From a virus (lineage: Duplodnaviria > Heunggongvirae > Uroviricota > Caudoviricetes): a DNA stretch of 41,886 nucleotides. The position numbers and the translations under genes were made by a program. Location of the stretch: positions 1 to 41,886 of the IMG/VR virus record IMGVR_UViG_2529292907_000015; one strand, written 5' to 3'. Under the pieces are notes generated by a model. That model was not told the origin of the DNA and made no database searches. It saw nothing but the letters and a program-made list of their open reading frames with translations. Of the stretch, positions 12,114 to 13,095 are shown one piece after another. Position 1 is the first letter of the stretch; each line of letters starts with the position of its first letter.

Positions 12114-13095
12114 ATGAGAACGTATATTAAAGAGTTAAGATGGGGAAGTTTTATTTTACTCCGGGGCGATATGATCTCTAACTATGCCTCAAATTATGGC
12201 GAATGGTGTGAAGTTGAGGTCGACTTATACAAAACATTATTATCAGAAGGCAGCAATGTTTTAGAGATTGGTGCAAATATAGGCTTGCATACAATACCAT
12301 TATCAAAAATATGTAGAAATGGAAAGGTAATATGTTTTGAACCTCAGCCACCAATATTTAATATGTTGTGTGGAAATCTGGCTATAAATAACGTATTGAA
12401 TGTTATGCCATATAACAAAGCTGTTGGTGATATTTGCGGGGATATTATAATTCCTGTATCTTCATACGATAAACCCTGGAATTACGGTTCATTTTCTATA
12501 GAAAATGGTTATAATAATGAAGGGTGCTATGATGCCCAGCCCAGCCCAGCCCAGCCCAGCCCAGCCCAGCCCAGCCCAGCCCAGCCCAGCCCAGCCCAGC
12601 CCAGCCCAGCCCAGCCCAGCCCAGCCCAGCCCAGCCCAGCCCAGCCCAGCCCAGCCCAGCCCAGCCCAGCAGTGTATTGATATTATTACCATAGATGCAT
12701 TTATGGAGTCTGTAGGGATAAAAATTGATTTCATCAAAATAGATGTTGAAGGATATGAAATCAATTGTATGCGTGGTGCTGTGAATACAATTAAAAATAA
12801 CAAGCCAGCAATATTCTGTGAGGCTGTTAATAAGAAAGTTACAGATGATGTTGTAGACTTCTTATCCATGTTGGGATATGAGGGGTATTGGTTTGTTGGT
12901 AACAGATATCGACATGATAATTTTCTTGCCTGCCCTGGCCCAATGTATGGAAAGTTAAGTTATGATGTGAATATTATATTCATTCATAAAGATGATAATG
13001 GTAAGTCCAGAGATCTATGTAGAGAAAGGCTCAGAAAGTTTAAGAATTTTGAACAGTTGAAAGAAGGTATTACAGTTCTGCAATCATACCCCTAA
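12114..13095 (+). CDS. FkbM-family (Methyltransf_21) SAM-dependent methyltransferase, interrupted by a pentanucleotide repeat; out of frame at the current repeat number
   Basis: N-terminal half (ORF 12114..12680) has the SAM-binding motif LEIGANIGLHT...CFEP. C-terminal half (ORF 12505..13095, +1 frame) has IKIDVEGYE. The frames switch inside the CCCAG tract. AT-rich. Confidence 0.7.
12535..12669. repeat. perfect pentanucleotide tandem repeat (CCCAG)27
   Basis: 135 bp of uninterrupted 5-bp units counted directly from the sequence. Translated as (AQPSP)9 in the upstream frame. Confidence 0.95.

Follow-up and report, generated by a model that had tools for sequence, protein, structure and literature searches.

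Reversible switching of a gene through a simple sequence repeat (SSR) is a mechanism already known from loci of Haemophilus, Neisseria, and Campylobacter and from phase-variable mod genes. In Vibrio cholerae, RfbT/WbeT (PF05575, related to FkbM) is the terminal methyltransferase of the O-antigen, and its mutational loss leads to the conversion from Ogawa to Inaba; to our knowledge, rfbT carries no dedicated long SSR. In Salmonella, prophages modify the O-antigen through P22-like gtrABC genes, the phase variation of which depends on Dam and OxyR. A related prophage O-antigen modification is encoded by gtrC of BTP1 (PMC4413052). The Type III mod genes, for example modB of Neisseria, are phase-variable through pentanucleotide repeats (PMC4751487, PMC5909438). 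Contingency loci were described in a 2025 preprint for the lytic coliphages T2 and T4 (agt and rIIA), where they consist of homopolymers of at least 6 nt, and the same preprint called such loci previously unreported in phages (PMC12633550). E. coli avoids SSRs in coding regions according to Lin & Kussell (PMC3315296), and a 2025 review of phase variation placed it only under the switches based on DNA inversion (fim) and methylation (pap) (PMC11868660). Here we analyzed the IMG/VR record IMGVR_UViG_2529292907_000015, a stretch of 41,886 nucleotides (hereafter the window) that comprises a complete lambdoid prophage and contains a gene of the FkbM methyltransferase family split by a perfect tract of 27 CCCAG units. 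The gene is probably an SSR contingency locus carried as cargo by lambdoid prophages of E. coli. Its new aspects are the E. coli host, the hok-linked cargo position in a temperate lambdoid carrier, the FkbM family of the enzyme, and the location of the tract in a loop in the middle of the domain. The literature searched contained no description of the locus and none of a switch of this kind for E. coli or its temperate phages, and an earlier report is possible, most subscription journals being outside the search. An earlier note on this DNA, made from the sequence alone, had regarded such a repeat as unusual for enterobacterial prophages, which agrees with the absence of a report and fits with PMC3315296 and PMC12633550.

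The two halves of the methyltransferase lay in two different reading frames, and the gene was composed of the following elements.

12102..12106, + strand: Shine-Dalgarno-like AAGGA, 7 nt 5′ of the ATG at 12114, read from the sequence.
12114..12534, + strand: N-terminal half of the FkbM-family methyltransferase in frame 0, with the S-adenosylmethionine (SAM)-binding motif LEIGANIG; open reading frame (ORF) with Pfam and TIGRFAM matches.
12535..12669, + strand: (CCCAG)27 pentanucleotide tract, which sets the frame of the downstream half; Tandem Repeats Finder (TRF), regular expression, and allele comparison.
12678..12680, + strand: TGA that ends the 188-aa OFF product, 8 nt past the tract; ORF analysis.
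12670..13095, + strand: C-terminal half in frame +1 relative to the start codon, with IKIDVEGYE; ORF, PF05050 positions 99-172, and family alignment.

The tract at 12535-12669 was perfect and unbroken (TRF: 27.4 copies, 100% matches, score 274), and the regular-expression check agreed. No other simple repeat of at least 16 nt with units of 1-9 nt was present within the 41.9-kb window, so chance is not a credible source of the tract. The ORF in frame 0 (12114-12680, 188 aa) carried LEIGANIG, crossed the tract, and ended with PSPAVY followed by the stop codon. The ORF in frame +1 (12505-13095) carried IKIDVEGYE and overlapped the first one across the tract, and the C-terminal half held the residues that were invariant in the family alignment, D156, K170, D172, E174, and E177. 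Because CCCAG contains no T, the tract encoded PSPAQ repeats whichever of the three frames was read, and neither of its strands contained a stop codon. When the gene was rebuilt with 20 to 34 units, a single full-length ORF was obtained with 22, 25, 28, 31, and 34 units only. In lineage A, the allele lineage of the window, n = 1 mod 3 gave the full ORF, and since the 5-nt unit is not divisible by 3, a change in unit number shifts the frame. The window allele (n = 27) is OFF, and the gain of one unit or the loss of two units turns it ON. The earlier note had claimed that the halves exchange frames inside the 27 units, that 25, 28, or 31 units give one continuous gene, and that the gene is OFF and one slippage event from ON. 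The ORF map and the tract coordinates agreed on the first point, the simulation of 20-34 units reproduced the second, and the full ORF with 28 units bore out the third.

The number of units differed widely among the close relatives of the gene, which were drawn from NCBI, ENA, or Logan E. coli data. The alleles of the window and of five relatives were as follows.

Window: 27 units, OFF.
L001 (VTB97432v): 17 units, OFF.
L002 (E41): 12 units, OFF.
L003 (E9): 10 units, ON, annotated as one intact 298-aa protein.
L004 (tcmA_3): 3 units, OFF.
L005 (TUM9812, divergent allele): 33 units, OFF, one unit from ON.

Compared with the window, L001-L004 showed 0 substitutions in 851 nt of coding flank, yet they contained 17, 12, 10, and 3 units. 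Over aligned flanking segments of 2.8-4.4 kb, L002 (n = 12) and the IMG/VR contig L013 (lineage A, n = 6) shared 99.5% identity or more with the window (n = 27). These differing unit counts on near-identical flanks implied that the tract changes far faster than point substitutions accumulate. L013 (tract 4422-4451) was 100% identical up to the 3′ junction of its tract, where 10 nt were deleted, and this deletion returned its n = 6 allele, otherwise OFF, to frame. The protein of L013 lacked QQCID, and the allele is apparently locked ON.

A wider sample of alleles was obtained from a search of 5.8 billion proteins, in which the proteins were matched to simulated alleles. Four diverged allele lineages were found, and every member with a named source was E. 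coli. The PSPAQ tract was located at the homologous position in all four lineages, the DNA of lineages C and D showed perfect CCCAG, and every DNA-verified tract was perfect. The DNA-verified counts were 27, 17, 12, 10, 6, and 3 units in lineage A, 33 and 3 in lineage B, 7 in lineage C, and 5 in lineage D. Together with the protein-inferred alleles, the distribution of unit numbers was as follows.

Lineage A: ON with 4, 10, and 6 plus the 10-nt deletion; OFF with 3, 6, 9, 12, 17, and 27.
Lineage B: ON with 2 and 5; OFF with 3, 4, 9, 10, 15, 18, and 33.
Lineage C: ON with 14; OFF with 7 and 19.
Lineage D: ON with 5; OFF with 4.

At least 23 distinct alleles were thus distinguished over the four lineages, 7 of the 23 were in frame, and ON and OFF alleles occurred together in every lineage. 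The comparison of relatives for differing unit counts had been suggested in the earlier note, and lineage A alone yielded the six DNA-verified counts given above. The gene also held up as the candidate phase-variable switch that it had been taken for, as the unit number was not shared among homologs and the downstream frame was not decayed.

The frame downstream of the tract was as well conserved as the one upstream. In the lineage pairs with unsaturated dS, the ratio of nonsynonymous to synonymous substitution rates (dN/dS) was 0.06-0.09 upstream of the tract (N-terminal half), and the C-terminal half gave 0.055-0.10. The proportion of synonymous differences (pS) between lineages was 0.28-0.75. 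The purifying selection on the downstream half was as strong as that on the upstream half, which indicated that the downstream half is not permanently out of frame. No stop codon or indel was found outside the tract in the DNA-verified alleles, the deletion of L013 being located at the tract junction. If expression is selected for, secondary mutations that restore the frame, such as this deletion, would be expected. As judged from these patterns, purifying selection acts on both halves and keeps the gene functional despite frequent OFF states.

Several observations weigh against a contingency locus. All evidence of variation came from comparison between strains and not from within one clone. 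The promoter scan upstream of the gene gave no convincing sigma-70 promoter above background, and transcription of the gene may come from the early operon of the phage alone. Of the distinct alleles, about two thirds were OFF, which equals the random expectation under neutrality. All six alleles with at least 15 units (15, 17, 18, 19, 27, and 33) were OFF and the ON state was seen at 2-14 units only, although six of six has a chance of about 0.09 and the sample is small, so that the pattern is suggestive only. Long PSPAQ inserts may thus be non-functional or poorly tolerated, or the tracts may expand once the gene is silent, in which case the long ones would perhaps be run-away expansions in silenced copies. 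The gene was rare, since the same gene was present in 4 of 5,426 complete E. coli genomes and an allele about 87% identical in 1 more, and the lineage-B allele P0127 contained an additional frameshift in its C-terminal part.

The OFF proportion, the silence of every long allele, the occurrence in 5 of 5,426 genomes, and the second frameshift of P0127, together with the insertion sequence (IS) remnant adjoining the gene, would also be expected of a decaying cargo gene, in which the tract is a mutational hazard in a dispensable moron and its length drifts neutrally with no adaptive switching. However, a frame that is usually dead would not stay conserved, whereas dN/dS remained below 0.1 for both halves across lineages at pS of 0.28-0.75. 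The intact sequence outside the tract in the DNA-verified alleles, the compensating 10-nt deletion in L013, and the persistence of the tract, perfect and identically placed, in all four lineages also argue against decay, which we regard as improbable.

Structural analysis was used to locate the tract in the enzyme. The fused protein with 28 units gave a single PF05050 (FkbM) match of 55.9 bits (cutoff 22.7) covering profile positions 1-171 of 173, and its TIGR01444 match reached 92.1 bits (cutoff 37.7). In RefSeq, the gene was likewise labeled as FkbM family methyltransferase in L001-L005. The AlphaFold2 model was made for the natural in-frame allele P0001 (4 units) with 56 homologs in the alignment and had a predicted local distance difference test score (pLDDT) of 94.4 and a predicted template modeling score (pTM) of 0.93. 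The modeled protein formed one alpha/beta domain with a class I Rossmann fold to which both halves contributed, and the site of the tract (residues ~141-147) was placed in the long surface coil 126-145, ahead of the strand 146-153. In the Foldseek search against the PDB, the best match was the FkbM structure 2py6. According to this model, both halves belong to a single methyltransferase fold, in which the tract occupies a loop; the single Pfam match, the confident AlphaFold model, and the top rank of 2py6 all agree with the assignment of the halves to one FkbM methyltransferase made in the earlier note.

The segment between G125 and D156, in which the tract is located, was the least conserved part of the domain. 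In 54 repeat-free homologs, its median length and its maximum length were both 28 residues, and the repeat was absent from the homologs at 26-48% identity, which came from other bacteria and metagenomes. The loop of the lineage-B ON allele with n = 2 was exactly 28 residues long (...YDASPAQQCID...). Because this loop matches that of the homologs, the tract looks like the expansion of a proto-repeat that encoded the ancestral loop, as far as the sequences indicate. The position of the tract raises the question of tuning at the protein level, in which the tract would vary the length of the PSPAQ loop and thereby alter activity or specificity, and the frameshifts would be by-products. None of the three frames is closed within the tract, each of them encodes PSPAQ, the coil that holds the site is at the surface, and the ON alleles with 2, 4, 5, 10, and 14 units gave loops of 28-48 residues against the typical 28. 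However, two thirds of the length changes of a 5-nt unit are frameshifts, and selection on loop length would favor units of 3, 6, or 15 nt. The median and maximum of 28 residues in the homologs speak against a benefit of length change, and most natural alleles were out of frame. Tuning as the purpose of the tract is very unlikely.

The family matches also bear on what the enzyme modifies. The search of Pfam and NCBIfam with the fused protein gave no DNA methyltransferase match, and only PF05050 and TIGR01444 were above their cutoffs. A PF05575 (RfbT/WbeT) match reached 16.1 bits, short of the cutoff of 27.9, and covered the N-terminal half only; PF05575 was among the precomputed matches of several homologs of 40-48% identity. 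PHROGs returned “methyltransferase” (phrog_8156) only. PADLOC gave no significant defence match, its sole match being mad2 with 18 bits at residues 43-97, which contain the SAM motif. The acceptor was not indicated by the structure searches or by the genomic contexts of the homologs. An assignment of the substrate from homolog context was tried and rejected, as the repeat-free homologs of 39-47% identity were located in unrelated neighborhoods, one near Wzy and a glycosyltransferase and the others outside glycan clusters. Characterized members of the FkbM family are known to methylate hydroxyl groups of polyketides and sugars.

A phasevarion-like epigenetic switch, in which the enzyme would methylate DNA or RNA and the tract would toggle a genome-wide modification, has some points in common with the present locus, namely a phase-variable SAM methyltransferase carried by a phage, a Type I restriction-modification (R-M) system at the same cargo site in another prophage, and the weak PADLOC match to mad2, which is confined to the SAM-binding motif. 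It is nevertheless highly improbable, since no DNA methyltransferase family was matched, the known FkbM substrates are hydroxyl groups of polyketides and sugars, and no partner restriction gene adjoined the methyltransferase, the neighbors of which were hok/sok and genes of the nin region. Gene regulation through DNA methylation is not supported. The prophage contained a separate N6_N4 DNA methyltransferase several kb downstream, which was without a repeat.

That the differing unit counts are assembly or sequencing errors in a low-complexity repeat can be dismissed almost entirely because, although many contigs built from short reads end at the tract and repeats can be miscounted in long-read assemblies, all differences were exact multiples of 5 nt in perfect tracts with error-free flanks, they occurred across independent complete genomes from different laboratories and hosts, and tracts of 2-14 units, which fit within a single read, also varied and recurred (14 contigs with n = 4 and 9 contigs with n = 10). 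The assembly index had no entry for the exact product of the 27-unit window allele. Many proteins from draft genomes were “partial” exactly at the tract (P0133 ends with ...CYDA and P0128 begins with CIDII...), a pattern that interruption of short-read contigs by long repeats would produce. In addition, the RefSeq annotation pipeline PGAP split the OFF alleles of L001, L002, and L004 into two coding sequences, each named “FkbM family methyltransferase”, with no pseudogene or frameshift flag. The split annotation and the assembly breaks at the tract imply that the locus is systematically mis-described in the databases.

Outside the gene itself, the region was composed of the following features.

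11665..11989, + strand: hok/sok type I toxin-antitoxin module; Rfam sok RF01794 with 108 bits at 11665-11836 and a hokD-like ORF at 11834-11989.
12068..13646, + strand: strain-specific AT-rich cargo island with the FkbM gene and the IS4-like remnant, between hok and the lambdoid nin backbone.
13096..13646, no strand assigned: segment found in lineage A only, resembling an IS4-family remnant, with 75-77% similarity to DNA annotated as IS4 transposase.

The hok/sok module was located directly upstream of the methyltransferase in all four lineages (L011 6316-6471, L012 6738-6842, and L153 5724-5879). RefSeq annotated hokD at the equivalent position in L001-L005, and HOK_GEF Pfam matches adjoined the gene in L011, L012, and L153. 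In lineage D the gene also adjoined hok, on a contig with a Rep3 replication gene (L012). The hok gene and the methyltransferase may travel as a unit, or hok may be a homology anchor for the exchange of the cassette. In three lineages, the gene was located in the nin region of lambdoid prophages. The DUF968, RusA, and Q genes lay downstream of the methyltransferase. The left flank (11990-12067) matched about 4,500 of 5,426 complete E. coli genomes, and the common backbone, shared by about as many, resumed at about 13647; the island was complete in 4 of these genomes, with a divergent allele in 1 more. The stretch homologous between lineages began at the 3′ end of hok and ended exactly with the stop codon at 13095, and in lineages B and C a stem-loop with a T-run terminator followed right after the stop codon, a layout of the moron-type cargo gene. 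In the same region of the E9 prophage, a few hundred bp upstream of hok, a fragment (L003 5079-5201) was annotated as a pseudogene of a dTDP-6-deoxy-L-hexose 3-O-methyltransferase, so that the cargo area contains a second remnant of a sugar methyltransferase.

The GC content of the island was 0.35-0.41, compared with about 0.5 on either side of it, consistent with the AT-rich island described in the earlier note. That note had bounded the island by Hok and by a hairpin with a 24-bp stem. The position of Hok upstream was correct; the arms of the hairpin proved to be 25 nt long, and the hairpin is not the boundary of the island. It was formed by perfect palindrome arms at 13259-13283 and 13292-13316, with an RNA folding energy of -48.1 kcal/mol (z = -11). 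The palindrome was rejected as the island boundary because the strain-specific DNA runs on to about 13646, and as the terminator of the gene because it has no T-run, forms part of the IS4-like remnant, and does not occur in lineages B and C. The terminator scan found none in lineage A. The IS4-like segment is probably not part of the switch. In E. coli E7-1N7 (L152 1801-2225), where the equivalent nin position is occupied by a Type I R-M cargo (HsdM/HsdS), the same remnant followed that cargo. Its presence after two different cargos at the equivalent position suggests, from these sequences, that the nin position is a hotspot of cargo insertion.

Repeats with units divisible by 3 were also observed in the window at 39682-39764, 2174-2257, and 8197-8231; their length could change in frame with no frameshift. 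One of them, with a 9/18-nt period, was located inside the ORF 38794-40224 (probably a tail fibre), and the other two had periods of 21 nt and 12 nt.

The complete genomes with a recorded host came from chicken (South Africa), pig (China), poultry (USA), and swine (China). DNA and protein searches revealed no close relative in 50,697 phage records, and none was found in 72,556 plasmids. CCCAG tracts of at least 6 units were present in 16 other viral contigs (L015-L030), with up to 14 units, and at more than 120 places in species-representative genomes, mostly of high-GC taxa and including the contig ends of Edwardsiella hoshinae (L090 and L091). None of these other tracts of at least 6 units adjoined an FkbM relative.

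The mechanism that we propose for the contingency locus is as follows. Slipped-strand mispairing in replication would add or remove 5-nt units and thereby shift the downstream frame. One frame in three gives the full enzyme, in which the length of the PSPAQ loop varies, and in the other two frames a stop codon 8-25 nt after the tract leaves an N-terminal fragment without the conserved C-terminal residues. From heteroduplex-repair studies in E. coli, loops of 5 nt would be expected to escape MutS-dependent repair. The (CTGGG)n template strand could possibly form a G-quadruplex, and switching within a lysogen population would be frequent and reversible. The enzyme may O-methylate a substrate other than DNA, most plausibly a glycan of the cell surface, and a lysogen population with both modified and unmodified surfaces could in this way hedge its risk from superinfecting phages or from the immunity of the host. 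Confidence is attached to the switch in this proposal, and the substrate and the benefit are guesses; the surface-glycan reading is possible but doubtful. Likewise tentative is the wider proposal that no long-SSR contingency locus was described in E. coli before this one and that it is mobile, in which case a hok-linked phage cassette with its own switch would split lysogens into those with and those without surface methylation (of lipopolysaccharide, LPS, capsule, or flagellar glycan) and trade resistance to phages or immunity against cost, the 5-nt unit persisting through its escape from MutS.

For E. coli, a contingency locus based on a long pentanucleotide repeat would be a third type of switch. 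The switch would move horizontally on temperate phages and extend the idea of phage contingency loci beyond the homopolymers of lytic T-even phages (PMC12633550). The carriers with a recorded host were livestock isolates, from pig and poultry, and a surface modification that can be switched would therefore matter for phage therapy, serotyping, and the choice of vaccine targets. The natural ON and OFF alleles in sequenced strains and the easy genetics of E. coli make the proposal directly testable. There is also a consequence for annotation, in that PGAP splits the gene and short-read assemblies break at the tract.

Compared with the known systems, the locus is closest in design to lic1A, lic2A, lgtC, lex2A, and oafA of Haemophilus influenzae, with tetranucleotide repeats, and to the poly-G capsule and lipooligosaccharide (LOS) genes of Campylobacter jejuni. 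In all of them a perfect repeat with a unit not divisible by 3 is located inside the ORF of a modification enzyme, the copy number varies by strain, ON and OFF alleles coexist, and slipped-strand mispairing is the shared mechanism. Unlike those loci, the present gene is found in E. coli as the cargo of a mobile prophage and not as a chromosomal LOS or capsule gene, and its tract has a 5-nt unit, reaches up to 33 units, and is located in a loop in the middle of the domain instead of near the 5′ end. The phasevarions, such as Neisseria modB, share with it a SAM methyltransferase with a pentanucleotide repeat in the ORF and several allelic lineages that each carry the repeat. In contrast to their N6-adenine DNA methyltransferases, the enzyme encoded here belongs to the FkbM family, has no res partner, and shows no DNA methyltransferase motif or Pfam match.

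Among phage-borne systems, agt and rIIA of T2 and T4 also combine a hypermutable repeat in a phage gene with reversible frameshifts, for which bet-hedging was proposed. Those repeats are short homopolymers in virulent phages that vary in lytic replication, whereas the tract described here is a 135-nt pentanucleotide repeat in the cargo of a temperate lambdoid prophage and probably varies during growth of the lysogen. RfbT/WbeT of Vibrio cholerae has a related methyltransferase fold, and its gain or loss alters a surface antigen, but it is chromosomal and the present gene is phage-borne. Like gtrABC and gtrC of BTP1, the gene is cargo of a temperate phage that would make the surface of the lysogen heterogeneous, a role that we only infer for the present gene. 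The gtr systems act through an epigenetic promoter switch and membrane glucosyl or acetyl transferases, whereas the locus of the window relies on an SSR frameshift in a soluble FkbM methyltransferase.

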